The notes below the pieces were generated by a model, which was given only the letters and a program-made list of their open reading frames with translations, did no database searches and had not been told where the DNA came from. The translations under genes and the position numbers were made by a program. 64,000 nucleotides of DNA from Actinomycetes bacterium (lineage in GTDB: Bacteria > Actinomycetota > CALGFH01), in NCBI GenBank assembly GCA_036000965.1, contig DASYUT010000265.1:24555-88554 (forward strand), given 5' to 3'. Below, one piece after another: positions 2,755 through 32,948 of the stretch (position 1 is the stretch's first letter; every line of letters begins with the position of its first letter).

Positions 2755-2852
2755 GGGGGTCCGGCAGCGGCGCGGGAAGGGCCTCACTCGCCTGCCGCTC
2801 CCGGTCCACGTCTCGGTCTCGGGGGTCCGGCAGCGGGGCGGAAAGGCCCTCA
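2755..2852. repeat. ~33-bp direct repeat x2 (period ~65 bp) in an intergenic region
   Basis: gggggtccggcagcggcgcgggaagggcctcac at 2755-2787 and gggggtccggcagcggggcggaaaggccctcac at 2820-2852. Confidence 0.6.
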
Positions 2853-3971
2853 CCCTCTGGGCGGCAGCAGCGCGGTCGCCCAGCCCGGCCACACTCCCTC
2901 GTCACCAGGAGGCAGCAGGGCGGCGAGCGCGCCGAGAAGCGCCGCCGCGGTCGGCGGCCGCCGGGTCGGGTCGGGGTCCAGCAGCCGCCACAGCAGGACG
3001 TCCAGCTCCACGGGCACCCCGCTGTGCACCTCGCGCGCCCGCGGGCGCCGCGCGGCCAGCTGCGCCGGGCGGCCATGTCCGGCCAGCTGCGCCGGCCGGA
3101 CATGGCCGTCCTCGGCCCGCCCCGCCTCGTAGGCCGGCTCGCCGGTGACCACCTCGTACAGCACGACGCCGAGGGCGAACAGGTCCATGCTCGCCGCGGT
3201 CGGCTCGCGGCGGCACTGCTCCGGCGCCATGTAGTCGACCGTTCCGCGCGCGCGGCCGTATGGGGCAGGGCGGCCGAGCTCCCGGCACAGCTCGAGGTCG
3301 ATGACGACGGGACGCCCCTCGCGCAGCACCACGTTGCCGGGCTTCAGGTCGAGGTGTGCCAGGCCACAGCCGTGCAGGTAGTGCAGCGCGCCGGCGATCT
3401 GCATTCCGACAAGCACCGTGTCGATCGGGCTGAGCGGTCCCGCGTCGTCGACGAGGTCGCCCAGGGTGGGGCCTTCGACGTACTCGAAGAGCAGGTGCGG
3501 GCGGGCGGCGTCGAGCCGCCGTGCCAGCGGTCGCTGGAGACCGGGGTGGGCCAGCCCGTCCAGGCGGTCGGCCTCGCGCCGCAGCGAGGCAACGGCCCGC
3601 GGGTGGCCGAGGAATGCCGGCTTGGGCAGCTTTGCCGTGACCGGGCTCCAGTGCGCGACCGACCAGGCCAGCCACGTCTCGCAGCGTCGCCCGTCGCCAA
3701 GGCGCGCCCAGGCGTGCAGCCCGGGCTCGATCTCCTCGCCCTCGGCGAACGCCCACGGCTCGGCTTCCTCCGTGGCGCCCACCGCCGCTGGAGACCCCGG
3801 GACGCTCACCACGCGGGCGTCCGGCGGCGCCGACGCAACGGCCGCGGAGCACCGGGACCTCGGGTCATCTCGGGTCATCGTCGTCAGTCGAGCACCCGGA
3901 CCGAGTTCGGCAGGCTCAGCAGGCGCCGCGGAGCGCCGAGAGCTCGGGTCATCGTTGTCAGGGACGTGCAC
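2850..3971 (-). CDS. Ser/Thr protein kinase with atypical catalytic motifs (HLDLKPGN, DLE in place of DFG)
   Basis: The kinase domain carries HLDLKPGNVVL, VVIDLELCRELG and VDYMAPE. GGAGG lies 6 nt upstream of the GTG at 3971 on the minus strand. The N-terminus is low-complexity with a short DNA repeat. Confidence 0.7.
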   Translation of the reverse strand: MHVPDNDDPSSRRSAAPAEPAELGPGARLTTMTRDDPRSRCSAAVASAPPDARVVSVPGSPAAVGATEEAEPWAFAEGEEIEPGLHAWARLGDGRRCETWLAWSVAHWSPVTAKLPKPAFLGHPRAVASLRREADRLDGLAHPGLQRPLARRLDAARPHLLFEYVEGPTLGDLVDDAGPLSPIDTVLVGMQIAGALHYLHGCGLAHLDLKPGNVVLREGRPVVIDLELCRELGRPAPYGRARGTVDYMAPEQCRREPTAASMDLFALGVVLYEVVTGEPAYEAGRAEDGHVRPAQLAGHGRPAQLAARRPRAREVHSGVPVELDVLLWRLLDPDPTRRPPTAAALLGALAALLPPGDEGVWPGWATALLPPRG

Positions 3972-4125: not shown

Positions 4126-5967
4126 TCACCCCGCCACTCCGGAAGGCAGACGACACCGAATCACCTCCTTCCCGGTCTGTTGGCCTGCGGGATGTGACCC
4201 GTCGCTCGGGACGGGGTGCCAGAGGGCCCAGAGGCGGGCGTACGCGCCGCCCTCGGCCAGCAGCTCGGCCGGCGGCCCCTGCTCGACCACCCGGCCCTGA
4301 TCGAGGACGACGACGCGGTCGGCGGCCGCGGCGAGGGACAGCCGGTGCGACACCATCAGCACGGTCCGGCCACGGGCGATGCGCGCGAGCGCCTCGACGA
4401 CGAGCGCCTCGGCGGCGGCGTCCAGCCCGCTGGTCGGCTCGTCAAGCAGGAGCAGGTCGGCGCGGCGCAGCACCGCCCGGGCGATCGCGATCCGGCGCCG
4501 CTGCCCGCCGGAGAGCAGGCCGCCCGCCTCCCCCACCGGCGTGTCGTAGCCGTGTCGCAGATGCCGCGCGAACTCGTCGACCAGCGCCTCCTTCGCCACG
4601 GCGAGCAGTTCCTCGTCGGTCACGTCCGGACGTCCGAAGGCGATGTTGTCCCGCACCGTGCCGTCCATCAGCCACGGCTCCTGCGGGACCAGGGCGACCC
4701 GGGCCCGCAGCGCGGCCGGCGCGCAGGCCGACAGGTCGACGCCGTCGACGAGGACAGCGCCGGAGTCCGGCTCGTAGAGGCGGAGCAGGACGTCGAGCAG
4801 GGTCGACTTGCCACTCCCGGACGGCCCGACGACGCAGACCGTCTCGCCCGTCCGGACGGTCAGCGACACCCGCTGCAGCACCGGCACCCCGGGCGTGTAG
4901 GCGAAGGAGACCCGGTCGAGCCGCAGCTCGCGGCGGAACGGTGGAACCGGCAGCGGGTGCGCCGGCTCGGCGACGGCCTCGTCGCTTCGCAGCACCTCGA
5001 GCAGCCGCTCGCCGCTCGCGGCTCCGCGCGCCACCGTGCTCGACATCCGGGTCAACGACCGGATCGGGCCGTAGAGGCTGGCCAGGTAGGACAGCACCAC
5101 GAGCAGGGTGCCGAGGGTGATCCGGCCGCTCTGCACGCGCTGCACACCAAGCCACAGCACCGCCCCGCTGCCGAACGCGAGCGCGAGGTCGGCCAGGGGG
5201 GAGAACCGGGCCTCCACCTTGAGCGCGTGCAGCGCCGCCCCGGTGCTCGCCACGTTGTGCCCGGCGAACCTGTCACGGGACAGCGCCTCCTGGCCGAACG
5301 CCTGCACCACCCGGACGTTGCGGAGAAGGTCTGCGGCGCTGGCCGACAGCCGCCCGCTCGCCGTCCGGGCCGCCCGCTGGGTCGCACGAACCCGGCGCCA
5401 GCGCACGACGGCGAGCCCAGCGAGCAGCGGGGTGACCACCAGGGCGGCGAAGGCGAGGACCGGGTCGACCCGCAGCAGCACGACCAGCATCCCGAGCAGC
5501 AGCAGCACCTCCGGGACCACGACCGTGAACCCCGCGACCAGGTAGTCCTCGACCCGGTTCACGTCGCCGACCAGCCGGGTCACCAGCTCGCCGCTGCGGT
5601 TGCGGTCGTGGAAACGGAGCCTGAGGCTCAGCAGCCGGTCCATCAGAGCCTGGCGCAGGTCGGCGCCGACACGCTCCGCCGCCGCCCCCGTCAGGATCCT
5701 GATGAGGTAGCCGACCAGGCCAGACACTCCCACCAGCAGCACGGAGCCGCCGGCGGCGGCACCGCTGAGCGCGGCAGGCGACAGGCCGGACAGAGGGGAC
5801 AGCCAGCCCGGGAGCGGATGGTCCCCGAGCGCGTTGTCGATCGCAAGCTTCAGCGGCCACGGCCTGGCCAGTTCGAGCAGGATCTCGGCCAGGGTCAGCC
5901 CGATCGCCACCGCGAGCGATGCGCGGTACGCCATCAAGTACGACCACAGGGACGCTGGGCCCCTCAT
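4126..5967 (-). CDS. ABC transporter, fused permease/ATP-binding protein (type I exporter, MsbA-like)
   Basis: N-terminal six-TM region, then Walker A GPSGSGKST, signature LSGGQRRRIAIARA and Walker B LLLLDE. Start ATG at 5967 (MRGPASLWSYL...) with GGAGGTGG 6 nt upstream. Confidence 0.8.
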   Translation of the reverse strand: MRGPASLWSYLMAYRASLAVAIGLTLAEILLELARPWPLKLAIDNALGDHPLPGWLSPLSGLSPAALSGAAAGGSVLLVGVSGLVGYLIRILTGAAAERVGADLRQALMDRLLSLRLRFHDRNRSGELVTRLVGDVNRVEDYLVAGFTVVVPEVLLLLGMLVVLLRVDPVLAFAALVVTPLLAGLAVVRWRRVRATQRAARTASGRLSASAADLLRNVRVVQAFGQEALSRDRFAGHNVASTGAALHALKVEARFSPLADLALAFGSGAVLWLGVQRVQSGRITLGTLLVVLSYLASLYGPIRSLTRMSSTVARGAASGERLLEVLRSDEAVAEPAHPLPVPPFRRELRLDRVSFAYTPGVPVLQRVSLTVRTGETVCVVGPSGSGKSTLLDVLLRLYEPDSGAVLVDGVDLSACAPAALRARVALVPQEPWLMDGTVRDNIAFGRPDVTDEELLAVAKEALVDEFARHLRHGYDTPVGEAGGLLSGGQRRRIAIARAVLRRADLLLLDEPTSGLDAAAEALVVEALARIARGRTVLMVSHRLSLAAAADRVVVLDQGRVVEQGPPAELLAEGGAYARLWALWHPVPSDGSHPAGQQTGKEVIRCRLPSGVAG

Positions 5968-6084
5968 CGGAACCACCTCCAGCAGCTGACACCCGGCCCG
6001 GCACTCGCTGATGTGCAACCCGGCGAGCCCGGCCAGGCCGGCGAAGGCCGCGGGATGGGGTCGCACCGAACCGACCCAGACCCT

Positions 6085-6217
6085 GAGCGTGAGAGCTCGT
6101 CACCAAGGCCATCGGTTCTTCCCGGCACGACCCTGAGGGCCCGCCACCACGGCCATCGGTTCTTCCCAGCCTGACCCTGAGGGCCCGCCACCACGGCGGC
6201 CGGTTCTCCCGGGCACG
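6085..6217. repeat. ~44-bp tandem repeat x~3 in a divergent promoter region
   Basis: gaccctgagggcccgccaccacggccatcggttcttcccagcct and gaccctgagggcccgccaccacggcggccggttctcccgggcac, preceded by a degenerate copy. Confidence 0.6.
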
Positions 6218-6364
6218 ACCACCGCCTGGGAGCTGGCTCCCGGTTCGGATGAGGCCGGGAGCCCTCGCGACCGCCCTCAGCGGGCCTCCTCAAGCGTGAC
6301 CAAAACGGTGTTTCATGGAGGCCGGTGGCGGCAGGGGCCGGCGTTCGGCGGAGGAGTTGCTGGC

Positions 6365-7351
6365 ATGAGAATGGAATCCTCGGTGGTGTCCGTCTCCTGG
6401 ATCCCGTGGGGCGCTGTCGAAGGGATGGTCAAGGTCCCTTTCGAGATGGGTGTCGCCCACTACGACATGCCGCCCCCGGACCGGCTCACCGACCTCCAGG
6501 CGCTGCTGGCCTCCAGCGCCGTCCGGTTCGCCAACGAGCTGCGGGCCTGGGTCGAGATGGACGGTGGCAAGGTCACCGGGTGCGGGCACGTCGGCAAGGG
6601 GCACATGGGGTCCACCAGCATGCGCGTGGCCGGCCTGGGCGTGACCTTCCCCGGGGTCAGCTTCCCCGACCTGCGCGGCGAGCCCGAGGTCCGGGAGGAC
6701 GCTGTGCGCTTCACCCAGACGGTCGGTGGACGGGCCGGCATGCCGGCGCCCCGCCGCGTCCGCCGCAGGCCGTTCGCGCAACTCGCCGCGCCGACCGTCT
6801 GGTCGACCCTCGCCCTGACCATCTACGCGGACGGGTCCTCGGACTTCGAGGTGGTGGGGGCGAGCCCGTTCCCCCGCCACTGGATCTACGACCACGACGG
6901 CCGGCTCGCGGCCAAGACCGGCTTCATCGACTTCGAGACCTGGTACCGGGAGTCGTTCGGCGACAAGAGCCCGTGGGGTGACGAGGAGTCGCCGGTGATC
7001 GTGACCGCGGTGGAGAGCGCCCTGGAACGGGAGCTCTCCCGCCTCATCATCGGGTCCGACCCGCCGTTTCGGCGGCTGTCGCCCGGGGAGGCGCTGGTCG
7101 AGCAGGGCGAACCGGGCGAGGAGCTGTTCCTGCTGTTCGACGGCATCCTGTCGCTCGAGCAGGACGGCCGGCCGGTCGTCGAGATCGGCCCTGGAGCGAT
7201 CCTCGGCGAGATGGCGCTGCTCGAAGGGGGCCGTCGCACGGCGACGCTGCGCGCCGTGACCCCGTGCCGGGTCGCGGTCGTGCACGGCGACCGTGTCAAC
7301 CGGGAGATGCTCACCGAGCTCGCTCGGCGGCGCCGCGGGGACGCGCCCTGA
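6365..7351 (+). CDS. Cyclic-nucleotide-binding (cNMP/CAP-effector) domain protein with an uncharacterised N-terminal domain
   Basis: The C-terminal segment GEELFLLFDGILSL...IGPGAILGEMALLEGGRRTATLRAVTPCRVAVV matches the cNMP-binding fold. GGAGGAG lies upstream of the ATG at 6365. Confidence 0.6.
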   Translation: MRMESSVVSVSWIPWGAVEGMVKVPFEMGVAHYDMPPPDRLTDLQALLASSAVRFANELRAWVEMDGGKVTGCGHVGKGHMGSTSMRVAGLGVTFPGVSFPDLRGEPEVREDAVRFTQTVGGRAGMPAPRRVRRRPFAQLAAPTVWSTLALTIYADGSSDFEVVGASPFPRHWIYDHDGRLAAKTGFIDFETWYRESFGDKSPWGDEESPVIVTAVESALERELSRLIIGSDPPFRRLSPGEALVEQGEPGEELFLLFDGILSLEQDGRPVVEIGPGAILGEMALLEGGRRTATLRAVTPCRVAVVHGDRVNREMLTELARRRRGDAP

Positions 7352-7409
7352 CCGCGGTGACAGCCTATCCTGGTGCTCCTCCGTCCAGCGACAGCCGTGG
7401 AGGGCGGGC

Positions 7410-10196
7410 GTGACCTGCGCGAACTGTGGAGAGGTCAACCCCGGTCAGGCGCGGTTCTGCCTCAACTGCGGTGCGCCGCTGGGTGCCGGCGGGCGGTGGC
7501 GCGGCGCCCGCAAGGTGGTGACCGTCGTCTTCAGCGACGTCACCGGCTCGACCGCGCTCGGCGAGCGGCTCGACACCGAGTCGCTCAGCCGGATCATGGC
7601 CCGCTACTTCGACGCGATGCGGACGCTGGTCGAGTGGCACCACGGCGTGGTGCAGAAGTTCGTCGGGGACGCGGTCGTCGCGGTGTTCGGCGTCCCGATC
7701 GTGCGCGAGGACGACGCACTACGGGCCGTCCGGGCCGCCGCAGCCATGCAGGACCACCTTGCGGAGCTGAATGCCGCCCTCGCCCGGGACTGGGGTGTCG
7801 GTCTGAGGATCCGCATCGGGGTCAGCACCGGGGAGGTGATGGTCGGCGACGCGCGCCTCGGCGGCGCGCTGGTGATCGGCGACACGGTCAACCTGGCCAC
7901 CCGGCTCGAGGCGGCGGCCAGGCCTGGGGAGATCCTGCTGGACCGGAGGACCTGGCACCTGGCCCGCGACGCAGTGGTGGTGGTCGAGGTGACGCCCGAG
8001 CAGCTCGCCGGCAGTGGCATCCCCGGCGCTGCCTACCGGCTCATCGACGTCTCGCCCGACGTCCCTGGCCACCTCCGCCGCCAGGACAGCCCGCTGGTCG
8101 GCCGTGACGACGAGCTCCGGCTCTTCGACTGGATCCGCCGACGGAGCACCAGGGAGTCCACCTGCCACCTGCTCACCGTGCTGGGCGCCGCCGGGGTGGG
8201 CAAGTCGCGCCTGGTCGCCGAGGCCGTCGGCGCTGCCGGCAGGCAGGCCACCGCCCTGGTCGGGCACTGCCCCCCCGACGCCGAGGGCAACACCTTCTGG
8301 CCGATCGCCGAGGTCGTCCGTGGGGCGGCCGAGGTCAAGAGCGCCGACTCGCCCGACGAGGCCCAGGGCAAGCTGACCGAGCTGCTCTCCGACGCCCCCG
8401 ACGGGCCACGGGTCGCGGGCCGCATCGGCCGGCTCATCGGCCTGGAGGCGACGCCGCTGCCGGCGGAGGAGACGGGCTGGGCCGTCCGGCGGTTCCTCGA
8501 GGTGCTGGCCAGCCGCAAGACCCTGGTGGCCCGCCTCGACCACCTCGACGGCTGGGAGCGGGCGGTGCTGGAGCGGGGCGCGGTCGTCGGCGAGGTGTTC
8601 GAGCGGGCGGCAGTGGTCGAGCTGTCACCGTCGGACGTCCGACCGGCCGTCCCGGACCACCTGCTCTCGCTCATCAGGAAGGAGCTGCTGCGCTCGGCCC
8701 GGTCCGGGCTGTCCGGCGGGGAGGCGTTCCGGTTCCGCCACCTGCTCGTCCGCGACGCCGCCTACGGCGCCATGCCCAAGCAGGCCAGGGCCGACCTGCA
8801 CGAGCGCTTCGCGGCCTGGCTGGAGCGAACCGTGGGCGAGCGGGTGCGCGAGTACGAGGAGATCATCGGCCACCACCTCGAGCAGGCCTACCGCTACCGC
8901 TCCGAGCTGGGACCGACCGACGCCGGGGCGCGAGCCGTCGCCGCCCGGGCCGCCGGGCAGCTGGCCGCAGCCGGGAACCACGCCTTCGCACGGGCGGACA
9001 TGCCGGCAGCGGCCAACCTTCTCGGCCGCGCCGCCGCGCTGCTCCCGGACACCGACGCGGGGCGCCTGGAGCTGCTTCCGAACCTCGCCCGGGCGCTCAC
9101 CGACAGCGGCAGGTTGTCCCTGGCGGAGGCGACGCTCACGCAGGCGACCGAGCTCGCCCGCGCCACCGGTGACCGCCGCGCCGAGGCCCACGCCGAGCTG
9201 GGGCGGTACTGGCTGCGGTACTACGCCGGGCGCGGAGGCTGGCTCGAGGACACCATGCGTGGCGCGGAGCAGCTCATCCCGGTCTTCGAGCGGCTCGGCG
9301 ACGACGCCGGCCTCGCCAAGACGTGGCGGCTGCTCTCCGAGGTGCACCTGACCCGCCTCCACATCGCCGCCAGCGAGGCGGCGGCGGCGCGCGCCGTCGA
9401 GCACGCCCGGCGGGCCGGAGACGAAAATGCGGAGGCGTCCGGCCTCGGCCACCTCGCCGTCGCCGGGGCATGGGGACGCAGGCCCGTGCCTGACGGCATC
9501 CGTCGCACCGAGGCCATCCTGGCAGAGGCCCGGGGCCGCCGGGACGTCGAGGCCGCCGCGTTGAAGGGGCTTGCCGGCCTGCGGGCGATGAGCGGCGACT
9601 TCGACGCGGCCAGGGAGCTCATGGCCCGCCACCGGGCGATCATCCAGGAGATCGGGCGCAAGCTGGTGCTCGGCGGGAGCGCGCAGATGGCCGCCTACGT
9701 GGAGATGCTGGCCGGCGACGCCCGCGGTGCCGAGCGGGAGCTGCGCCGTGGCTACGAGATCCTGGACTCGGCCAGCGACCGCGCCTACCTGCCGGCCGTG
9801 GCCGCCATGCTCGCCCACGCGCTCGAAGCCCAGGGCCGCTACCAGGAGGCCGAGCGGTATCTCGAGCGAGCCTGGGCCATGGCGGTCAGCAGGCGAACTG
9901 CCAGGCTGCCCACCGGTCGGCGAGCCGTGCGTAGACGGCCTCGTGCTGGCAGGCCGAGTCCTCCCAACGGAACCGGGTCGCCACCCGCCGCCCCGCCGCA
10001 CCGAGTCGCGCCCGCAGCTCGCTGTCGGTCGCCGTCGTGCGCATCGCGTCCGCCAGTGCGGCGACGTCGCCCGGGGCCACCAGGAGCGCGTCCCTCCCGC
10101 CGACCAGGTATTCGCGGAACACGGGAATGTCGGTGGCGATCACGGGGAGACGCGCGGCCATCGCTTCGAGCACCACCAGGCCCCAACCCTCCTTGA
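7410..10196 (+). CDS. Adenylate/guanylate cyclase (class III) with N-terminal zinc ribbon, central AAA/NB-ARC-like ATPase and C-terminal TPR region
   Basis: Zinc ribbon CANCGEVNPGQARFCLNCGAPL. Cyclase motifs VVTVVFSDVTGSTAL, FVGDAVVAVFG and IGDTVNLATRLE, then a P-loop GAAGVGKS and TPR-like repeats. GGAGGG lies 5 nt before the GTG at 7410. The last ~100 aa are low-complexity and overlap the convergent GT gene, so the true C-terminus is uncertain. Confidence 0.75.
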   Translation: MTCANCGEVNPGQARFCLNCGAPLGAGGRWRGARKVVTVVFSDVTGSTALGERLDTESLSRIMARYFDAMRTLVEWHHGVVQKFVGDAVVAVFGVPIVREDDALRAVRAAAAMQDHLAELNAALARDWGVGLRIRIGVSTGEVMVGDARLGGALVIGDTVNLATRLEAAARPGEILLDRRTWHLARDAVVVVEVTPEQLAGSGIPGAAYRLIDVSPDVPGHLRRQDSPLVGRDDELRLFDWIRRRSTRESTCHLLTVLGAAGVGKSRLVAEAVGAAGRQATALVGHCPPDAEGNTFWPIAEVVRGAAEVKSADSPDEAQGKLTELLSDAPDGPRVAGRIGRLIGLEATPLPAEETGWAVRRFLEVLASRKTLVARLDHLDGWERAVLERGAVVGEVFERAAVVELSPSDVRPAVPDHLLSLIRKELLRSARSGLSGGEAFRFRHLLVRDAAYGAMPKQARADLHERFAAWLERTVGERVREYEEIIGHHLEQAYRYRSELGPTDAGARAVAARAAGQLAAAGNHAFARADMPAAANLLGRAAALLPDTDAGRLELLPNLARALTDSGRLSLAEATLTQATELARATGDRRAEAHAELGRYWLRYYAGRGGWLEDTMRGAEQLIPVFERLGDDAGLAKTWRLLSEVHLTRLHIAASEAAAARAVEHARRAGDENAEASGLGHLAVAGAWGRRPVPDGIRRTEAILAEARGRRDVEAAALKGLAGLRAMSGDFDAARELMARHRAIIQEIGRKLVLGGSAQMAAYVEMLAGDARGAERELRRGYEILDSASDRAYLPAVAAMLAHALEAQGRYQEAERYLERAWAMAVSRRTARLPTGRRAVRRRPRAGRPSPPNGTGSPPAAPPHRVAPAARCRSPSCASRPPVRRRRPGPPGARPSRRPGIRGTRECRWRSRGDARPSLRAPPGPNPP

Positions 10197-11121
10197 GGGA
10201 GGGGAACACGAACGCGTCGGCTGCCTGGTACCAGCAGGGAAGCTCCTGGTCCGGGACCGTGCCGAGCAGGACGACGTCCCGGCCCAGCTCGAGTCCTGAC
10301 GCCCGAGCCCGGGTCAGGACGCGGTCGCGGTAGGCGGCGTAGTCCTGGAACGAGTGGCCGCCGACGACCGCGAGCACGGGCGAGGGCTGCAGGGTGCGCC
10401 GCAGCGCGGCCATTGCCTCGATGAGCTCGGCGGCGCCTTTGCGTGGCTCGATGCCGCCGACGGTGAGGAAGAGGAAGCGGCCCTCCGCGCCCACCCTGGC
10501 GCGGAACGGACCTGGGTCGAAGGCCGGCACCCGGGCGAAGCGCTCGGCGTCGACCCCGTTGCGCACGACCTCGGCCGCCACGCCGTACTCCTCCTCGAGC
10601 ACCCGCCGCCACCAGTGGCTCACCACGAGGACGTGGTCGGGCTCGAGGATGGCCCGGCGCTGGCACTCGACCAGCGCCTGCGTGGTGAAGTCGTCGACGT
10701 GGTGGACGGTCCGCACCACCAGCACCGGCGCGCCGAGGTCGCGGACGCGCGCGGCGGCCCGGGCCGAGATGCAGTCCTGGGCGTGGAGGATGCGGGAGGC
10801 GGGCTGCAGGGCGGCCAGCCCTTCGGCGAGGACGTCGACCGACCGGAACACCCGCTCCTCGAGGTCGGGTGCTGGCGGCGGCGTGGGGATGATGGTGTGC
10901 TGGACCGTCGTGGGCCGGAAGAAGCCGGCCTCCGGGTCGCCGAGCGCCACGACGCGCACGGGCATGCCGAGCCGGTGGAGCGCCTCGGCCAGCTGCAGCG
11001 TGTGCACCACACCGCCCCGGGGCCTGGTCGAGTACGTCACCAGGACGACGTCGGCGCTGACCGGGCGCTCCTCCTGCTCCCGACCGGGCCCCGGCCCGCC
11101 CGCCGACGTAACGGGGGCCAC
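9886..11121 (-). CDS. GT4 family glycosyltransferase (MshA/MSMEG_0565-like)
   Basis: The N-terminal domain (VVLVTYSTRPRGGVVHTLQLAEALHRLGMPVRVVAL) and the C-terminal EGWGLVVLEAMAARLPVIATD motif fit GT4. The stop TGA is at 9886. The start is ambiguous: GTG at 11121 or GTG at 11181 inside the tandem repeat. Confidence 0.7.
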   Translation of the reverse strand: MAPVTSAGGPGPGREQEERPVSADVVLVTYSTRPRGGVVHTLQLAEALHRLGMPVRVVALGDPEAGFFRPTTVQHTIIPTPPPAPDLEERVFRSVDVLAEGLAALQPASRILHAQDCISARAAARVRDLGAPVLVVRTVHHVDDFTTQALVECQRRAILEPDHVLVVSHWWRRVLEEEYGVAAEVVRNGVDAERFARVPAFDPGPFRARVGAEGRFLFLTVGGIEPRKGAAELIEAMAALRRTLQPSPVLAVVGGHSFQDYAAYRDRVLTRARASGLELGRDVVLLGTVPDQELPCWYQAADAFVFPSLKEGWGLVVLEAMAARLPVIATDIPVFREYLVGGRDALLVAPGDVAALADAMRTTATDSELRARLGAAGRRVATRFRWEDSACQHEAVYARLADRWAAWQFAC

Positions 11122-11127
11122 CCCCGC

Positions 11128-11274
11128 TGGCCTCACGGGAACCCGCCCGCCGGCGTCACGGGGCCCGCCCGCCGGCGTCACGGGACCCCGCCCGCCGGCG
11201 TCACGGGACCCCGCCCGCCGGCGTCACGGGGCCCCGCCCGCCGGCGTCACGGGGCCCCGCCCGCGGTCTCGGGG
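11128..11274. repeat. 22/23-bp tandem repeat x~6 (ccccgcccgccggcgtcacgggg)
   Basis: Units at 11142, 11164, 11186, 11209 and 11232, plus a partial copy at 11255. The unit is not a multiple of 3. The array spans the fdrA stop codon and the GT 5' region. Confidence 0.8.
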
Positions 11275-24535: not shown

Positions 24536-24675
24536 GGCGCACCGGGAGCCCTGGCCCGGCTGGTGGGCGCGCCAGGCCGCACCGCAGGCGCACCGGGAGC
24601 CGCACCTGGGAGGGAGGTGCGCCGCTGCGCAGGCTGGGCGTACCAGGAGCCGCACGTGGGGAGGCGGGTGCGCCG
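24536..24675. repeat. Direct repeats (gcgcaccgggagcc...gggaggNggtgcgccg) x3 between ylbE and ylbF
   Basis: Copies at 24536, 24589 and 24638, each containing a GGGAGG-like element. Confidence 0.5.
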
Positions 24676-26266: not shown

Positions 26267-27601
26267 TCACCTCCTGATTGACGCCAGGCCGTTCTGGGCG
26301 GCCAGGGCGATCGGCTCGTTCAGCGCCCCGATGGGCGGCGAGTAGACGTTCTCCATCCAGGCCAGGTCCTCGAGGGTCACCCCGGTCTTGATGGCCATGG
26401 CCAGGAAGTCGGCCCGCTCCTTGATCCCCTCCTGGCCGACCAGCTGGGCGCCGATCAGCCGCAGGCTGCCCGGCGAGGCCAGCAGCTTCACCCGGAGCTT
26501 CTTCACCCCCGGGTAGTAGCGGGCCCGGGAGATGCCCTCGGCCACGCCCATGACGAACGGGATGCCGAGCGCGGTCGCGGTCGTCTCCCCGAACGAGGCG
26601 CCGCCGATCATCCACTTGCCGGCCACCATCCCCCAGGGCACGTAGACCGGCTGGTAGGTCCGGGTCCCACCGGCGGCGCCGGACCCGGCCACCTTGCCCT
26701 GGGCGTACGCGTGGCTGCCGGACAGCCCCTGGATCGGGATGTTGGTGATCCCGTGGGGCAGCTCCACGCAGTCGCCGGCCGCGAACACGCCCTCCACCGA
26801 CGTGGCCATGCGCTCGTCGACCACGACCCCACCGGTGGAGCCGATCTGGACGCCGGCCCGGCGGGCGAGGGTGTTGTTGGGCTGCTTGTGGGTGCACACC
26901 ACCACGACCTCGGCTGGCAGCTCGCCCTCGGAGGTGGCCACCGCGCGCACCCTCCGGTCGCCCACGAACGCCGTCACCCGGGTGTTGAAGTGCGTCTTCG
27001 CGCCGAGCTCGGCCCACGACTCCTCGACCGGCCGCATGATGTCGGGGTCGGCCGCCTCGGCCAGCGGCCACGGACGCGGGTCGACCAGGTGGGTCTCGAT
27101 GCCGCGATGGGCCAGAGCGGTGACCATCTCGAGGCCGAGCGGCGACGCCTCGACCACGACCGCGACCCGCACGTCGTCGAGGACCCGGTCCCATTCCATG
27201 GCCTGGCGGATGTTCTTGACGTAGTACAGGCCCTCGAGGTCCGACCCTGGGACGCCCGGGTCGGCGTAGTCGAAGCCGGTGGCCAGCACCAGGCGATCGA
27301 AGGGGACGTCGCCCTCGCCCTCGACGGCGACCCGTCTCTGCTCGAGGGCGAGGGCGGTCACCCGGGTCTCGTAGTGGATGTCGATGCCGGCCCGCTCGTA
27401 GGCCTCCTTGCCCTGCAGGAACAGGGACTCGAAGTCGGCGATCTCGCGGCCGTGGACGTAGGGGATGCCGCAGGGGCTGTAGGCGGCGTCCTCGTACTCG
27501 GTGTAGACGGTCACCCGCGCATCCGGGTCGACCTGCTTGGCGCTGCCGGCAGCTCCGATGCCCGCGGCGCCACCCCCCACGATGACGATCTGCGGCGCCA
27601 T
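26267..27601 (-). CDS. FAD-dependent pyridine nucleotide-disulfide oxidoreductase, CoA-disulfide reductase / NADH oxidase family (single-Cys type)
   Basis: N-terminal IVIVGGGAAG, redox Cys in YSPCGIPY, a second dinucleotide fold and a C-terminal dimerisation domain. Confidence 0.8.
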   Translation of the reverse strand: MAPQIVIVGGGAAGIGAAGSAKQVDPDARVTVYTEYEDAAYSPCGIPYVHGREIADFESLFLQGKEAYERAGIDIHYETRVTALALEQRRVAVEGEGDVPFDRLVLATGFDYADPGVPGSDLEGLYYVKNIRQAMEWDRVLDDVRVAVVVEASPLGLEMVTALAHRGIETHLVDPRPWPLAEAADPDIMRPVEESWAELGAKTHFNTRVTAFVGDRRVRAVATSEGELPAEVVVVCTHKQPNNTLARRAGVQIGSTGGVVVDERMATSVEGVFAAGDCVELPHGITNIPIQGLSGSHAYAQGKVAGSGAAGGTRTYQPVYVPWGMVAGKWMIGGASFGETTATALGIPFVMGVAEGISRARYYPGVKKLRVKLLASPGSLRLIGAQLVGQEGIKERADFLAMAIKTGVTLEDLAWMENVYSPPIGALNEPIALAAQNGLASIRR

Positions 27602-27625
27602 CCTCGCCCCCAGGGGTCACCATTT

Positions 27626-27690
27626 CGGCAGCTGGTACATTCGACAGTTGGTACATGTGCGACAGTTGGCACACGTGCGACAGCTAATTC
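27626..27690. promoter_or_regulatory. 18-bp tandem repeats (cgacagttggtacatgtg x~3.5) in the divergent promoter between the oxidoreductase operon and the XRE regulator: candidate operator
   Basis: ggcagctggtacattcga, cagttggtacatgtgcga, cagttggcacacgtgcga, cagctaattcacc. Each carries an ACATGT/ACACGT palindromic core. The region is locally AT-richer. Confidence 0.55.
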
Positions 27691-27693
27691 ACC

Positions 27694-28449
27694 ATGATGA
27701 ACGCAGCATCGCCTATACTACTCGGTGCATCCAGAGCGTCAAGGAGCGAGGTAGCCTTGGGTGGAGAAGACGTGCGGGTGAGCGCCGACGGAGCAGCCGC
27801 CTCGCCGAAGCCGGGCCGGGCCCGTGGAGCCGCGCGGGCCGCCGTCAGGGCGCGCAGGTCGGCGTCGGCCGGGCGGGACGACCAGCTCGGCCAGATCATC
27901 GAGTCGATCGGGCCGAAGGTCCGCCATCTCCGCCAGCTCAAGGGCCTGTCGCTCCAGCAGCTCGGCGAGCGGTCCGACATCTCCGCCGCCGCCATCCACA
28001 AGATCGAGCGCAACGGGATGGTCCCGACCATCACGACGCTCATGAAGCTCGCCGTCGCCCTCAACCGGCCCCTGTCGTACTTCGTGGAGGAGGACACGAC
28101 CGCCGACGGCCCGGTGGTCTTCATTCCCGCCGGCGAGCGCAAGCCGGTCTTCACCTCCAAGGCAGGGCTCGAGCTGCGCAGCATCACCGGCCCGTACGGC
28201 CGGTTCTTCATGGCCGGGGCCGCGGCCAGGGTCCAGCCCCTGGCCGACAGCGGCGAGAAGCCGATGGAGCACCCCGGCGAGGAGCTCGTCTTCCTGCTCG
28301 AGGGTGCGCTCGAGCTCGAGGTCGACGGCGAGACCTACCGGCTCTCCGCGGGCGACTCCCTGCACTTTCGCACCGACCGCCCGCACCGCTGGCGCAACCC
28401 GCGGCAGCAGGAGGCCCGCGCCGTCTGGATGGCGCTGCGCCCCATGTAG
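27694..28449 (+). CDS. XRE-family HTH + cupin-domain transcriptional regulator
   Basis: HTH region IGPKVRHLRQLKGLSLQQLGERSDISAAAIHKIERN. C-terminal cupin region GEELVFLLEGALELEVDGETYRLSAGDSLHF. The start is uncertain because the N-terminal 70 aa are low-complexity. Confidence 0.7.
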   Translation: MMNAASPILLGASRASRSEVALGGEDVRVSADGAAASPKPGRARGAARAAVRARRSASAGRDDQLGQIIESIGPKVRHLRQLKGLSLQQLGERSDISAAAIHKIERNGMVPTITTLMKLAVALNRPLSYFVEEDTTADGPVVFIPAGERKPVFTSKAGLELRSITGPYGRFFMAGAAARVQPLADSGEKPMEHPGEELVFLLEGALELEVDGETYRLSAGDSLHFRTDRPHRWRNPRQQEARAVWMALRPM

Positions 28450-28577: not shown

Positions 28578-28690
28578 TCAGGGAGCTGATCGAGGCCGAG
28601 GCATGCGACGGGAACGACGCCAAGTCGTCAGGGAGCTGATCGAGGCCGAGGCATGCAACGGGAACGAGGCGCGTCAACGGGAACGAGGCC
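28578..28690. repeat. ~43-bp direct repeat x2 (period 50 bp) upstream of the GT39 gene
   Basis: tcagggagctgatcgaggccgaggcatgcgacgggaacgacgc and tcagggagctgatcgaggccgaggcatgcaacgggaacgaggc, then gcgtcaacgggaacgaggcc. Confidence 0.7.
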
Positions 28691-28719
28691 AGGTCGTCTT
28701 GGAGTTGCCGACCAGGGAA

Positions 28720-30474
28720 ATGACCCCCGAGCATGACAAGGGAACGGCCGGGGGGACGTGGGCTCCCGATCGCATCGCGCTGCGGTCGCCCATCGCGGCG
28801 ACCGCCATCGTCGTCTTCCTGCTCGGCCAGATGGCGGTTGCCATGTCGCTGTCCAGCCGGGGCGACACGGCGACCTATGACGAGCCTGCGGGCCTCGCGG
28901 CCGGTATCGCGTACACGAACCAGCACGACCTGCGGCTGAACTACGAGCATCCGCCCCTGGCCAAGATCCTCGCCGCCCTGCCGGTCGCCCACAGCGGCGT
29001 GAGGCTGCCGTCGACCGCGGAGTTCGGCGCCGGGGACCAGTGGGAGCTCGGGCGGCGGATCCTGTTCGACAACGGCGCCGGCCCCGGCGGGGTGCTATGG
29101 CTCGCGCGCCTGCCCATGATGCTGCTCACGCTCGCCTTCGCGCTGGTGGTGTACGCGTTCGCACGCGACCTGTTTGGCGCGTGGGCGGCGCTGGTCCCGT
29201 TGGCGGTGGTGACACTCGACCCCAACCTGGTGGCCCACGGGCGGCTGGTGACGACCGACGTCCCGGTCGCCGGCTTCCTGCTCCTCACCCTTTGGCTCTT
29301 GGCGAGGGCCTCGCGAGCGCCGTCGCCGTGGGGGCTGCTGGTGGCGGGCGGCGCAGCCTACGGCCTGGCGCTCGCGTCCAAGTACTCGGCGCTGGTGCTC
29401 GCGCCGGTCGTGGTGCTGCTCGCTTTCCTCGTCGGCACCCGCGCATCGCGGCCCTGGCTACGGCGGCTGGCGCGTGGTGCGCTCGCGGCCGCCCTTGTGG
29501 TCGCGGCTGGCCTCGCGATCGTCTGGGGCGTGTACCTGGCCGTGGACCCGGGCCTGCGCTTCTCCGTCGAGCAGCCGCAGGCCCCCGGGGTCCTGGCGTC
29601 CACCGCCCGGCTGCTCCCCGTCCCCAAGCCGTACCGGGCGGGCGTCGAGTTCCAGATCATCGCCGACAAGAGCAGGCGCCCCGCGTTCCTGTTCGGCCGG
29701 CACTACGACGGCGGGCTGCCCGTCTACTACCCCGCGCTCCTCGCAGTCAAGAACCCGCTCGGTACGATCGCGCTCTGGGCGCTCAGCGCACTCGTGGCGC
29801 TACGCTCGCCCCGGCGCCGGGACCTGGTGCTGTTCGTGCTCCTCCCAGCCGCGTGGGTCCTGGGGGTCGGCATGCAGTCGAACACCAACATCGGCTACCG
29901 CCACATCCTGCTCGTCCCGCTGGTCCTCGCGGTCGCGACGGGGACGGTGGCGGCCACCGGACGCAGGGCCTGGACGATGGCCGTGCTCGTGCTCCTGCTC
30001 GCCACAGCCGTGAGCACCTGGCGTGCCCACCCGTTCTACCTGTCCTATGTCAACGAGGTGTTCGGGGGACCGGCGCACGCCCACGCCCTGTTGAGCGACT
30101 CGAACGTCGACTGGGGCCAGGACGCCGCGCGGCTGGGCCGCTACCTGCGGGAGCACCACCTGGACGGCCGGGTCTCGCTGCTCTGGTCCAGCAGCGTCCC
30201 ACCCGCCGAGTACGGCATCCGGGCGCGTGACCTGTGCACGATCCCACCGGGCGAAGTCCGCGGGGTGGTGGTCGCGTCGGTCACGGCGCTGAACAGCATC
30301 TACGGGGCGAAGTTCGACTTCCTCCGGCTCGGCTACCGGCCCGTCGCCGAGGTCGGGCGCTCGATCCTCGTCTACGACGTCGACGGGTCTGGCCCGCCGC
30401 GCGGCGACCTCGCCCCGCCGAGATGCCCCGTCCACGACCTCATGTGGCCGGCCCACCAGGGGCGGCGGCCGTGA
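28720..30474 (+). CDS. GT39 / ArnT-like (GT-C) membrane glycosyltransferase (protein-O-mannosyltransferase-like)
   Basis: About 12 TM segments. N-terminal loop TYDEPAGLAAGIAY...HPPLAKIL fits the Pmt/GT39 DE-motif loop. Large C-terminal periplasmic domain. Start taken at the ATG at 28720. Confidence 0.65.
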   Translation: MTPEHDKGTAGGTWAPDRIALRSPIAATAIVVFLLGQMAVAMSLSSRGDTATYDEPAGLAAGIAYTNQHDLRLNYEHPPLAKILAALPVAHSGVRLPSTAEFGAGDQWELGRRILFDNGAGPGGVLWLARLPMMLLTLAFALVVYAFARDLFGAWAALVPLAVVTLDPNLVAHGRLVTTDVPVAGFLLLTLWLLARASRAPSPWGLLVAGGAAYGLALASKYSALVLAPVVVLLAFLVGTRASRPWLRRLARGALAAALVVAAGLAIVWGVYLAVDPGLRFSVEQPQAPGVLASTARLLPVPKPYRAGVEFQIIADKSRRPAFLFGRHYDGGLPVYYPALLAVKNPLGTIALWALSALVALRSPRRRDLVLFVLLPAAWVLGVGMQSNTNIGYRHILLVPLVLAVATGTVAATGRRAWTMAVLVLLLATAVSTWRAHPFYLSYVNEVFGGPAHAHALLSDSNVDWGQDAARLGRYLREHHLDGRVSLLWSSSVPPAEYGIRARDLCTIPPGEVRGVVVASVTALNSIYGAKFDFLRLGYRPVAEVGRSILVYDVDGSGPPRGDLAPPRCPVHDLMWPAHQGRRP

Positions 30475-32705
30475 CCGCCGCGTCGCCACGGCCCGGCGAC
30501 CCTTCGCGGGTCGGCCCGTACGTCGTGCTCGAACGGCTCGGCCACGGCACGAAGGGCACCGTCTACCTTGGCCAGGCGGAGGACGGTAGGCTCGTCGCCC
30601 TCAGGACGATCCGCCCCGACTGGGCGCGGGACGACGAGTTTCGCGCCTGGTTGCGCCTTGCGGCCCACGCCGCCCGCCAGGTGGGGCGGCTCTGTACCGC
30701 CCCGGTCCTGGAGATCCAGCTCGACGCCGACCCTCCCTACCTTGTCACCGAGTACGTGGACGGCCCCAGCCTGCAGGCCTTCGTCGACGAGAACGGGCCG
30801 CTCGCCACCACGGCCCTCGACGGGCTCGCGGTTGCCACAGCCGCGGCGCTGATGGCGATGCACGCCGCTGACGTGGTGCACCACGACCTCAAGCCTACGA
30901 ACGTGCTGCTCTCCCCGCAGGGTCCCTGGGTTGTCGACGTCGCGATCGCCAAGGCGTTCCAGTCCGCAGTCGCCCTCGGCCGCACCGAGCTGGCCGCCAC
31001 GCCCGGCTTCCTCGCCCCTGAGCAGGTGCTTGGGAGGCAGGTGACGGCCGCCGCCGACGTCTTCGCCTGGGGCGGGGTCATCGCCTTCGCCGCGACGGGA
31101 CGGCCGCCCTTCGGCTCAGGCCCGCTGGGGGACGTGTCGCACCGGGTCGTCCACGAGGAGCCCCGGCTCGACAGCATGCCCGGCCCCCTGCGCGAGCTGG
31201 TCGCGGCCGCGATGCGGAAGGAGCCGAAGGCCCGCCCGGTGGCCCGGGACCTGTTCGAAGCCCTGACCGGCGGTACCGCCGCTGGCGACCCGCGCGCGGT
31301 CGTCCGGCAGGTGCTGGAGCACACCTGGAGCGAGGTCGGTCGCAGTGCCGCCGCGACGGCCAGCCCGAGCGCGGCACCGCAGCGGCCGGCTCCGCGCACG
31401 CCTGTCGGCCCCCCGCCCGCACCCGCCGCGGCCGACCCCGTGCACGCGCCCGCCGCACCCGCGTCCGCCGCGGCCGACCCCGCGCACGCGCCCGCCGCAC
31501 CCGCGTCCTCCGCGGCCAGCCCCGCGCGCGCACCCGCAGCGCCCGCGGCCAGCGCGGCCGACCCCGCGCGCGCACCCGCAGCGGCCGGGTCCGCGCCCGC
31601 GGCCGGCGACGCGGCGAACCAGGCGACCCCCCCGGCTGCGACTGCCGCCCCGGCCGGCGCGGACCGGGAGCGGGGCGCGGACCGGGAGCGGGTGGAGTGG
31701 ACCCAGCCACAATGGACGCCGCGCCTGGGGCGAAGACACCGTGGGTGGCCGCGGAGGCTGCTCGCGTTCGTCGCCGGCCTCGCGGTGGTCCTGGCGGCGC
31801 TCGTCGTCCCGGGCTGGCGAGACATCGTGGGCAGGGTGACGGCACCCCGGTGGCACCGGCTCGCCGACTTGCCCATCCCCGTGGCGGCCGCCGGGGTCAC
31901 CGCCTTCCAGGGGCGGCTGTGGGTCGCCGGCGGCATCACCACGCGCGACAACCAGCCGCAACCGGTACGTGACGTGCAGGTGTACGACCCGAAGGCCAGG
32001 CGCTGGAGCGCCGGCCCCAGCCTGCCGCGGCCGACGAGCTTCGCCCCGCTCGTGTCCACCGGGACGGCGCTGCTCCTGGTCGGTGGCCTGGTGTCGGACG
32101 GCTCCACCGCGACAGTCCTCCGCCTCGACGCGGCTGGCGGCAGGTGGGTCGAGGACACGCCGTTGCCCTCGCCGCGAGGCGCTGGCGCCGCTGCCTGGGA
32201 CGGGTCCCAGCTCGTGTTCGGGGGCGGCGTGCGGCGTGACCACAAGGCCGCTGACGACGTGTGGGCCATGAGGGAAGGGACCTGGAGGCCGATCGGCAGG
32301 CTGCAACGGCCTCGCGAGCAGCTCGCTGCCGGCACAGACGGCCGCGGCAACGTCTGGTTCCTGGCTGGCCGCGACCCCAGCCTTGCCGGCCACCAGAACC
32401 TTGGCACGGTCGACGTCGTGAAGAGCGGCCGCGTGCACCCGGCCCCGCAGCAGGTGACCCCCGTGCATGGCCCGAGCGCCGTGTGGTGGCCGGGCACGGG
32501 CGTCTGCCTTCTCGGTGGACAGCTCGCGAGCGGGTACTCCGGGCGGGTGGAATGCCTCGGCCGGCAGGATCGCGAAGGGCAGCTGCCGCCGTTGCCGGCG
32601 CCCCGGGCTGGGCTCGGCGCCGCCGTGATCGGCGACGTGGTCTACGTGGTCGGGGGCTACGGACTCGGCTTCTGGGGCAGCCCGCGGACCGAGTCGTTCC
32701 GGTGA
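30471..32705 (+). CDS. Ser/Thr kinase-like (probable pseudokinase: VALR, HHD, DVA variants) with Pro/Ala-rich repeat linker, TM segment and C-terminal Kelch/beta-propeller domain
   Basis: Kinase fold LERLGHGTKGTVY, HHDLKPTNVLL and GFLAPEQ. The beta3 Lys is replaced by Arg and DFG reads DVA. Kelch-like repeats from ~aa 520. The GTG at 30471 overlaps the upstream TGA. Confidence 0.7.
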   Translation: MTAASPRPGDPSRVGPYVVLERLGHGTKGTVYLGQAEDGRLVALRTIRPDWARDDEFRAWLRLAAHAARQVGRLCTAPVLEIQLDADPPYLVTEYVDGPSLQAFVDENGPLATTALDGLAVATAAALMAMHAADVVHHDLKPTNVLLSPQGPWVVDVAIAKAFQSAVALGRTELAATPGFLAPEQVLGRQVTAAADVFAWGGVIAFAATGRPPFGSGPLGDVSHRVVHEEPRLDSMPGPLRELVAAAMRKEPKARPVARDLFEALTGGTAAGDPRAVVRQVLEHTWSEVGRSAAATASPSAAPQRPAPRTPVGPPPAPAAADPVHAPAAPASAAADPAHAPAAPASSAASPARAPAAPAASAADPARAPAAAGSAPAAGDAANQATPPAATAAPAGADRERGADRERVEWTQPQWTPRLGRRHRGWPRRLLAFVAGLAVVLAALVVPGWRDIVGRVTAPRWHRLADLPIPVAAAGVTAFQGRLWVAGGITTRDNQPQPVRDVQVYDPKARRWSAGPSLPRPTSFAPLVSTGTALLLVGGLVSDGSTATVLRLDAAGGRWVEDTPLPSPRGAGAAAWDGSQLVFGGGVRRDHKAADDVWAMREGTWRPIGRLQRPREQLAAGTDGRGNVWFLAGRDPSLAGHQNLGTVDVVKSGRVHPAPQQVTPVHGPSAVWWPGTGVCLLGGQLASGYSGRVECLGRQDREGQLPPLPAPRAGLGAAVIGDVVYVVGGYGLGFWGSPRTESFR
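31431..31598 (+). repeat. 42-bp in-frame tandem repeat x4 encoding (ADPxHAPAAPASxA)n in the kinase linker
   Basis: gccgaccccgtgcacgcgcccgccgcacccgcgtccgccgcg and three near copies. Confidence 0.7.
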
Positions 32706-32774: not shown

Positions 32775-32926
32775 CGGCGTGAGGACGGAAAGCCCGCGGC
32801 GTGAGGAACGGAGAGCCCGTCGAGATCCGGGTCCCGGCGGTGGTGGCGCACTGGCCTCACGAGCGCAACGACCGGGGGTGGCGGACTGGCCTCACGAGAG
32901 CAACGACCGGGTGGTGGCGCACTGAC
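32775..32926. repeat. Two sets of direct repeats (22-bp x2; ~37-bp x2.4) upstream of the beta-PGM/GH65 gene
   Basis: ggcgtgaggacggaaagcccgc / ggcgtgaggaacggagagcccg, then ggtggtggcgcactggcctcacgagcgcaacgaccggg / ggtggcggactggcctcacgagagcaacgaccggg / tggtggcgcactgacc. Confidence 0.65.
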
Positions 32927-32948
32927 CCCCTACGGGAGGAACGACCAG

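Follow-up and report, generated by a model that had tools for sequence, protein, structure and literature searches.

In Mycobacterium tuberculosis, the Ser/Thr kinase PknF and the ATP-binding cassette (ABC) exporter Rv1747 are encoded by genes in one operon, and PknF regulates Rv1747 by phosphorylation (PMC3138270, PMC8339232). Mycobacteria also furnish a precedent for a bacterial non-RD kinase, PknG (PMC4238996), as well as a pseudokinase of the ActPs3 family, MviN (Rv3910), which regulates cell-wall synthesis (PMC12599244). Here, we analyzed a 64,000-nucleotide stretch of contig DASYUT010000265.1 from an Actinomycetes bacterium (positions 24,555 to 88,554; hereafter, the window, with a GC content of 70-78%) that encodes two Ser/Thr kinase-like proteins, which we refer to as K1 (2850..3971, minus strand) and K2 (30471..32705, plus strand). 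With somewhat better than even confidence, we read them as two unrelated kinase modules: K1 as an active non-RD kinase that works with an ABC exporter, and K2 as an impaired receptor kinase that regulates or reports on a PMT-type glycosyltransferase. A first-pass annotation of the window had presented the two as a pair, both being candidate pseudokinases or scaffolds. We found the pairing to be a mere co-occurrence of genes 26 kb apart, and the pseudokinase label to hold for K2 but not for K1, which keeps all of the defining residues. We also rejected the idea of a cognate kinase-pseudokinase pair, because synteny is not conserved (on the contig of a K2 ortholog, the 10 kb to each side of it hold no kinase gene, and the flanking genes differ) and because each protein has its own partner in a conserved two-gene module. 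These two modules are more useful than the observation that led to them.

K1 is encoded by an intact open reading frame (ORF) as a soluble Hanks-type protein of 373 amino acids, with a kinase domain at about nt 2922-3749, a GTG start preceded by GGAGG at a spacing of 6 nt, and a match to Pfam Pkinase of 100.1 bits (gathering cut-off, 31.7). We assigned its residues by HMMER alignment to the kinase domain of M. tuberculosis PknB, its best solved relative (E = 5e-25). In this alignment, LGDGRRCETW forms the G-loop of K1, its VTAK lies opposite VAVK of PknB, RREA opposite RREA, HLDLKPGN (3333-3356) opposite HRDVKPAN, DLE (3291-3299) opposite DFG, and MAPEQ opposite LSPEQ. The β3 Lys (3630-3632), the αC Glu, the HxD Asp, the catalytic-loop Asn, and the DFG Asp are all five present in K1, while the HRD Arg and the Phe-Gly of DFG are not kept, in line with the HLD and DLE that the first-pass annotation had read. 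An alignment that places a Lys was among the findings it had named as refuting its view; this applies to K1, in which the Lys aligns, but not to K2, which has an Arg there. Judged by these motifs, HLD and DLE put K1 in the non-RD subclass, still within the kinases. We used a definition of pseudokinases as proteins that have lost at least one of the VAIK Lys, the HRD Asp, and the DFG Asp (bioRxiv 10.1101/2025.01.12.632604); K1 falls outside it because all three are kept. The AlphaFold2 (AF2) model of K1 is confident (mean predicted local distance difference test, pLDDT, 88.5; predicted TM-score, pTM, 0.87), and the solved folds that Foldseek placed nearest to it were those of active kinases, namely PknB (E = 1e-21), PknA, Stk1, CaMKII, Aurora, and PDK1.

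The family of K1 points in the same direction. A search of 5.8 billion proteins returned 344 relatives at E ≤ 1e-10, the best 120 of which share ~47-56% identity with K1, measure ~290-380 amino acids, and consist of the kinase domain alone. Among these 120, the G-loop LGDGRRCETW is near-constant, the β3 Lys and αC Glu are kept, and the catalytic loop reads HLD or HCD in the motif variants listed, while the DFG position reads DLG in 61, DFD in 42, DFG in 8, DLD in 6, DFE in 2, and DLE in 1, i.e., its third residue is acidic in 51 of the 120. The metagenome loci of the family (see below) agree with this pattern (HLD/HCD, D[LF][GDE]). None of the five catalytic residues varies across a 38-sequence family alignment, which also shows conserved motifs at the C terminus (LWPxWA) and at the N terminus. 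Such invariance would be hard to explain other than by catalysis, and K1 is thus probably catalytically competent. HLD is, across the aligned sequences, a trait of the whole family, and only the Glu of DLE and a 10-amino-acid insertion are private to the lineage of K1. The activation loop of the family is short and lacks a conserved mid-loop Ser/Thr. In RD kinases, the HRD Arg is neutralized by an activation-loop phosphate, which non-RD kinases do not need; a short loop without an acceptor would therefore be the pattern expected here. The taxonomy of the family is based on a few named metagenome-assembled genomes (MAGs), and a profile search of genome contigs with the family alignment returned generic kinase patterns (matches of ≤38% identity) and no true family members.

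The family also bears on the possibility that K1 and K2 are both pseudokinases or scaffolds that signal without catalysis. The shared loss of the HRD Arg and the DFG Gly speaks for this view, as does the Glu that K1 has in place of that Gly, which is unusual and unique in its family, but the five catalytic residues of K1 are kept and family-invariant, and an acidic third DFG residue is common among its best homologs. Moreover, DFD occurs in the active human kinases Mnk1/2. PknG, which resembles K1 as a soluble Hanks-type kinase without the HRD Arg, is active without being under the control of activation-loop phosphorylation; it carries rubredoxin and TPR domains, whereas K1 has nothing beyond its kinase domain but short conserved motifs at either end, and its genomic partner differs. 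Bacteria thus do contain non-RD kinases such as PknG (PMC4238996). We regard pseudokinase status for both proteins as very unlikely. Reading motifs alone mislabels K1, and a family-level check corrects the error: a protein whose HxD lacks the Arg and whose DFG lacks the Gly is not thereby a pseudokinase.

The gene that immediately precedes K1 on its strand encodes an MsbA-like ABC exporter (4126..6066, minus strand), a half-transporter with one transmembrane and one nucleotide-binding domain (Pfam ABC_membrane and ABC_tran). Its Walker A, signature, Walker B, and H-loop motifs are all readable in the translation and intact, and it scores 430 bits against TIGR02204 (MsbA_rel), under the cut-off of 780. 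The same arrangement recurred widely. Of three K1 homologs on long contigs, two had the exporter directly upstream, and the third had it at an upstream distance of 4.5 kb. Another 37 loci came from scanning metagenomes with the back-translated G-loop. Upstream DNA of 500 bp or more was available for 28 loci; in 26 of them, the gene immediately preceding the K1 homolog on its strand encodes an exporter ortholog (47-80% identity), and in the other two, the exporter lies 1.6 and 4.5 kb upstream of the K1 homolog. The 26 loci collapse to 6-7 lineages, to which two further contigs (L130 and L131) add two, one HCD-type and one DFG-type, with the same exporter-kinase order, for a total of 9 distinct lineages; in 2 further lineages, the exporter lies within 5 kb of the K1 homolog. 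The genes outside the pair vary by locus. The pair is also present in an Armatimonadota MAG, and another locus holds Alginate_exp and sigma54-activator genes, which we read as Gram-negative-like. Taken at the level of gene order and homology, the exporter and K1 form a conserved two-gene, multi-phylum module. We found no description of a pair of exporter and soluble kinase in the kinase-classification and related literature that we searched, and no promoter or terminator in a scan of the intergenic gap between the two genes.

The module resembles PknF-Rv1747 in that a Ser/Thr kinase gene stands beside an ABC exporter gene, but it differs in both partners. Rv1747 takes up the signal through two FHA domains, while the partner of K1 is a plain MsbA-like half-transporter without FHA, which sets the module apart from PknF-Rv1747; PknF, in turn, is a membrane RD kinase, whereas K1 is soluble and non-RD. 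The exporter-K1 pair is hence not a module of the PknF-Rv1747 type. We propose that K1 would be active and constitutively competent, controlled by and acting on the exporter complex, and probably regulated by partner binding rather than by activation-loop phosphorylation. Most likely, K1 would phosphorylate the exporter or an exporter-bound protein. The exporter has a C-terminal tail that is Ser/Thr-rich in close orthologs and makes a candidate acceptor site, though nothing more than a candidate. If so, the pair would offer a simple two-gene system for the control of an FHA-less bacterial exporter by Ser/Thr phosphorylation.

The tight association with an exporter could also be taken to mean that K1 phosphorylates the cargo, a peptide or small molecule, within a modification-and-export or resistance cassette, and K1 does show weak, generic matches to the kinase domains of lanthipeptide synthetases. 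Yet, at the loci examined, the pair has no conserved neighbor for a precursor peptide, a lyase, a cyclase, or biosynthesis, and K1 has a full protein-kinase C-lobe with APE, its nearest folds being protein kinases. We give this alternative little chance, and the lack of conserved biosynthetic genes next to the pair led us to reject K1 as a lanthipeptide or RiPP (ribosomally synthesized and post-translationally modified peptide) kinase.

A few further observations concern this locus. A 44-bp ×3 tandem repeat (82% matches) at 6090-6220 is found in the intergenic region from which the exporter gene (start, 6066) and a cyclic nucleotide monophosphate (cNMP)-binding gene (start, 6296) diverge, and may be a regulatory array for the exporter-K1 operon. 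One of the exporter-K1 loci (L131, 640-2076) encodes a second, longer kinase of 478 amino acids two genes upstream of the exporter. Within the K1 gene, a perfect 10-bp ×2.1 repeat at 3859-3879 (CTCGGGTCAT) falls in the low-complexity N-terminal extension, and the start of K1 differs among gene callers, which give 310, 320, 342, or 373 amino acids; HEV8652208.1, a 310-amino-acid member of the 90% cluster of K1, is annotated only as a serine/threonine-protein kinase. The JGI metagenome contig Ga0307278_10000773 encodes K1 and exporter proteins that are 100% identical to those of the window.

K2 is a receptor-like protein of 744 amino acids with a degenerate kinase domain at ~30519-31295 (Pfam, PknB alignment). 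The alignment confirmed the departures that had been read from its motifs, with VALR for VAVK (the Arg, residue 45, at 30603-30605), HHD for HRD (HHDLKPTN, 30879-30902), and DVA for DFG (30936-30944), while APE is kept. It also revealed a change that the first-pass annotation had not listed, namely Ala for the αC Glu (LRLAAHA against RFRREAQ). With its β3 Lys replaced by Arg, K2 is a pseudokinase by the definition above (bioRxiv 10.1101/2025.01.12.632604). Among the 120 K2 homologs listed, the combination of VALR, LRLAAHA, HHD, and DVA is common only to K2 and an 80%-identical full-length ortholog (P0121), and it is also carried by two members of the 90% cluster of that ortholog (P0369 and P0370). 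A canonical DFG, DLG, or DMG is carried by 118 of the 120 listed kinase-domain homologs (DFG in 114; two more have DLG or DMG), and the variants listed have the β3 Lys and mostly HRD. In a neighbor-joining tree, the K2 kinase domain nests among canonical actinobacterial kinases on a mildly long branch (0.345, against a median of 0.306). Its best NCBIfam match was AfsK (178.6 bits, far under the cut-off), and the NCBIfam scan of the kinases gave sub-threshold generic kinase matches only.

An exhaustive HMMER search revealed canonical relatives with the same kinase-transmembrane (TM)-Kelch architecture and with HRD and DFG (P0380, P0379, and P0490), one of which (P0380) is a clear relative of the K2 kinase domain and keeps VAIK, the Glu, HRD, and DFG. 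Since related kinase-TM-Kelch proteins are canonical, K2 is, on this comparison, a recent, lineage-specific degenerate descendant of a kinase-TM-Kelch receptor kinase. It presents a recent natural conversion of a kinase into a pseudokinase, with canonical sisters available for comparison.

Among described pseudokinases, MviN comes close to K2 in layout, being a cytoplasmic pseudokinase with a TM segment and an extracellular binding domain, coupled to an envelope-biosynthesis enzyme in the membrane (PMC12599244). In MviN, however, a single polypeptide combines these parts, no catalytic motif survives, and the activation loop has been deleted, whereas K2 retains the catalytic Asp, the Asn, the DFG Asp, and an activation loop of full length, with the glycosyltransferase encoded by a separate gene to which it is translationally coupled. 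ActPs2 (PMC12599244), an actinobacterial family with a C-terminal TM segment, shares the β3 Arg with K2, but K2 lacks the other features of that family, i.e., the change of the HRD Asp to Asn, the DFG deletion, and the large insertions between β3 and αC and in the activation loop; with the Arg alone in common, and with the Asp of HHD and DVA present in the PknB alignment, K2 is no ActPs2 member. Likewise, the membrane-associated DYD family (bioRxiv 10.1101/2025.01.12.632604) has a β3 Arg and no αC Glu, but K2 has DVA instead of the DYD whose second Asp pairs with the Arg, which places it outside this family too. In contrast to DYD and ActPs2 proteins, K2 has canonical kinases as its nearest relatives. 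By its motifs, K2 fits none of the seven described bacterial pseudokinase families.

Outside the kinase domain, the other parts ascribed to K2 by the first-pass annotation were all recovered. The linker is a Pro/Ala-rich, cytoplasmic juxtamembrane segment that holds AADPxHAPAAPAS repeats, encoded by a 42-bp ×4.3 tandem repeat at 31416..31594, plus strand (Tandem Repeats Finder score, 225; the annotation had counted ×4). At the same place, the ortholog P0121, whose gene lies at 10001-12205 of contig L001, has a different linker repeat with EAGAPLP units, and P0370 has one unit fewer than P0121 (727 against 734 amino acids). The linker repeats have expanded independently and vary in copy number, which fits a flexible tether. 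The sole hydrophobic helix, at amino acids 430-448 by hydropathy (31758-31814, plus strand), is followed by a Kelch propeller (~31839-32702, plus strand; Pfam Kelch_1, 59.7 bits), and the ectodomain was modeled by AF2 as a six-blade Kelch propeller (pLDDT 93.4). The top Foldseek matches to this model were the six-blade Kelch domains of NS1-BP, Keap1, and KLHL12 (TM-scores ~0.74-0.83), and the model resembles peptide-binding Kelch domains. Together with the TM helix and two invariant Cys in the ectodomain, the propeller model supports a role of the Kelch domain as an outside-facing sensor. Kinase-TM-β-propeller architectures are also found in PknD (NHL) and in AfsK-like PQQ or WD40 kinases; the propeller of K2 differs from these in being a Kelch module common to proteins with TIR, caspase, CHAT, and HSP70-like heads.

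Immediately upstream of K2 lies a gene for a membrane glycosyltransferase of the PMT/PMT_2 type (GT39-like, GT-C; 28603..30474, plus strand), whose stop overlaps the start of K2 by 4 bp in the sequence GTGA (30471-30474), the translational coupling that had been proposed from the sequence. Its GT39 label stands at the level of Pfam, where it passes the cut-offs of both PMT_2 (60.7 bits; cut-off, 26.1) and PMT (33.6 bits; cut-off, 22.7), and goes no further, as NCBIfam and PDB sequence searches with this ORF gave no match. After its first hydrophobic segment, the product carries YDEP...EHPPLAK, a stretch that may resemble the PMT loop-1 motif. The first-pass annotation had suggested checking whether the glycosyltransferase-kinase pairing is conserved, and the same 4-bp overlap is indeed found on the ortholog contig, amid different flanking genes. 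The closest canonical kinase to K2 (P0126) has neither a glycosyltransferase neighbor nor a Kelch domain. A candidate function of the enzyme, glycosylation of the Pro/Ala-rich linker of K2, was rejected since the single TM helix leaves the linker in the cytoplasm. We propose that the Kelch propeller would sense something at the cell surface, and that the degenerate kinase domain would act as a conformational switch or docking scaffold. A surface signal would then be passed on through a non-catalytic kinase domain that regulates or reports on the coupled glycosyltransferase or recruits partners, in a manner akin to MviN (PMC12599244).

The genes around the glycosyltransferase-K2 pair showed some features of their own. 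The glycosyltransferase gene is preceded by an XRE/cupin regulator gene (27694-28449), just upstream of which is a 16-18-bp ×3 tandem repeat (27624-27683). On the other side, tandem repeats (23 bp ×2 and 35 bp ×3.2, at 32775-32954) occupy the gap from the stop of K2 to the start of the next gene (32949-36179), which encodes a 1076-amino-acid fusion of a β-phosphoglucomutase-like HAD domain and a GH65 phosphorylase/hydrolase. The gene that follows the K2 ortholog on its contig (12283-13257) encodes a trehalose-phosphatase, so that the next gene is sugar-related in both genomes but is a different gene.

Several findings weigh against our reading of an active K1 and an impaired K2. For K1, DLE occurs only in its own 90% cluster and is unique among ~150 family members. 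In addition, a 27-bp ×2.1 tandem duplication within the gene (3053..3108, minus strand; Tandem Repeats Finder), encoding RPAQLAGHG/RPAQLAARR, gives rise to the private 10-amino-acid insertion in the C-lobe, which the window sequence alone carries in the 38-sequence alignment and which was modeled at a pLDDT of only 56-58. DLE and the insertion could mean that this copy of K1 is weakened. One may go further and suppose that the family is active while this copy has recently been crippled by DLE and the duplication and is drifting toward a pseudokinase, for which additional small tandem repeats within its N-terminal extension could also be cited. Against such drift, the ORF is intact with a normal GC content at third codon positions (GC3, 0.88), the exporter partner is intact, and the duplication is found in five of five full-length members of the 90% cluster, DLE and the duplication together recurring in other full-length members in NCBI, JGI, and Logan records. 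Relatives with DFE, DFD, and DLD further show that an acidic side chain is tolerated. We therefore consider a recently crippled K1 decidedly unlikely, and prefer an active one. As to what K1 acts on, the exporter carries no FHA or R-domain-like module (Pfam found ABC_membrane and ABC_tran only), and its role as a K1 substrate is a prediction.

For K2, the contrary points are that it still has GxGxxG, both catalytic-loop residues (Asp and Asn), the DFG Asp, and APE, and that its G-loop contains a Lys (GHGTKG) that is conserved in orthologs, where canonical relatives have Met or Gln. These features leave room for nucleotide binding or atypical catalysis, and would suit an atypical but active K2 in which the β3 Arg and the G-loop Lys replace the Lys-Glu pair, as in WNK or POMK. 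On the other hand, the exchange of the β3 Lys for Arg is a standard kinase-dead mutation, the αC Glu and the Phe and Gly of DFG are lost together, and DVA supplies no DYD-type acidic partner for the Arg. A review covers ATP-binding predictions for β3-Arg pseudokinases and the POMK and WNK precedents (PMC12599244). On balance, an active K2 appears unlikely to us, if less so than a crippled K1, and we keep to an impaired one. Two more points count on the contrary side: the pairing of K2 with a PMT-type glycosyltransferase was seen in two lineages that are 80% identical, and the ratio of nonsynonymous to synonymous substitution rates between K2 and its ortholog (dN/dS 0.47-0.61 at dS 0.07-0.14) is uninformative, with the neighboring glycosyltransferase giving the same ratio.

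The Kelch part of K2 leads to a wider set of proteins. With the TM-Kelch part alone as the query, we found closer relatives (40-57% identity) whose heads are TIR, caspase, or none, and the exhaustive HMMER search added CHAT and HSP70-like heads; in all of the TM-Kelch relatives found, the TM helix lies just ahead of the propeller. We examined the gene context of four distinct headed TM-Kelch proteins (three TIR and one caspase), and in all four, the next gene was a convergent gene for a GT2-type glycosyltransferase, with the 3′ ends of both genes overlapping. This enzyme measures ~620 amino acids in the three TIR loci and 323 in the caspase locus, where it is cut by the contig end. A Kelch homolog without the TM helix had no neighboring glycosyltransferase gene. 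Since a glycosyltransferase neighbors all four of these proteins as well as K2, the stable association, as far as gene neighborhoods tell, is that of a membrane glycosyltransferase with an outside-facing Kelch domain, while the head is variable. K2 hence points to a recurring link between outside-facing Kelch sensors and membrane glycosyltransferases. On three contigs (L123, L124, and a third), the TIR-Kelch/GT2 pair sits amid TIR_2, TPR-S, MAP3K_TRAF_bd, patatin, SLATT, integrase, and transposase genes, surroundings with the look of a mobile conflict island.

TIR, caspase, and S/T/Y kinase domains are known as interchangeable effectors of bacterial conflict systems (PMC8195603), and the TIR, caspase, and CHAT heads on the Kelch sensor hint at functions in envelope surveillance or conflict. 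A bolder reading builds on this, in which TM-Kelch proteins with their membrane glycosyltransferases would be an undescribed family of cell-surface surveillance receptors with swapped cytoplasmic heads. What the Kelch domain monitors would be a surface glycan or glycoprotein built or modified by the glycosyltransferase, and the head of K2 would be a non-catalytic adaptor. The heads (TIR, caspase, CHAT, HSP70-like ATPase, and active or degenerate kinase) would correspond to the effector repertoire of conflict or programmed-death systems in multicellular bacteria. This reading, which we put forward as tentative and, for now, doubtful, draws support from the agreement between the range of heads seen here and the effectors known from conflict systems (PMC8195603).

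As for the wider surroundings, a scan of the whole window against Rfam gave no matches. In PADLOC, K1 and K2 matched generic kinase entries only (PD-T4-6 and mad6), with no match for the glycosyltransferases and no specific defense-system match. A cyclase and a cNMP receptor had been reported near K1, and Pfam identified both. The cNMP-binding protein (6296..7351, plus strand; Pfam cNMP_binding, 62.2 bits) is encoded divergently from the exporter-K1 pair, and no such gene was present in the other exporter-K1 loci examined; we mention it as context only, as we do the adjoining zinc-ribbon, class III cyclase, AAA_16, and TPR protein (7293..10196, plus strand; Guanylate_cyc 66.8 bits, AAA_16 40.7 bits, and TPR matches in Pfam). 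The description of the neighborhood as signaling-rich applies to the first 10 kb, the other window genes scanned being metabolic or transport genes. One of the other genes encodes an oxidoreductase (26267-27601), identified by exact protein look-up as HEV8652228.1. Lastly, a GT4 glycosyltransferase gene at 9886-11181 on the minus strand (Pfam "GT4-conflict," 35.8 bits; cut-off, 26) carries at its 5′ end a 23-bp ×7.4 tandem repeat (11095-11264).

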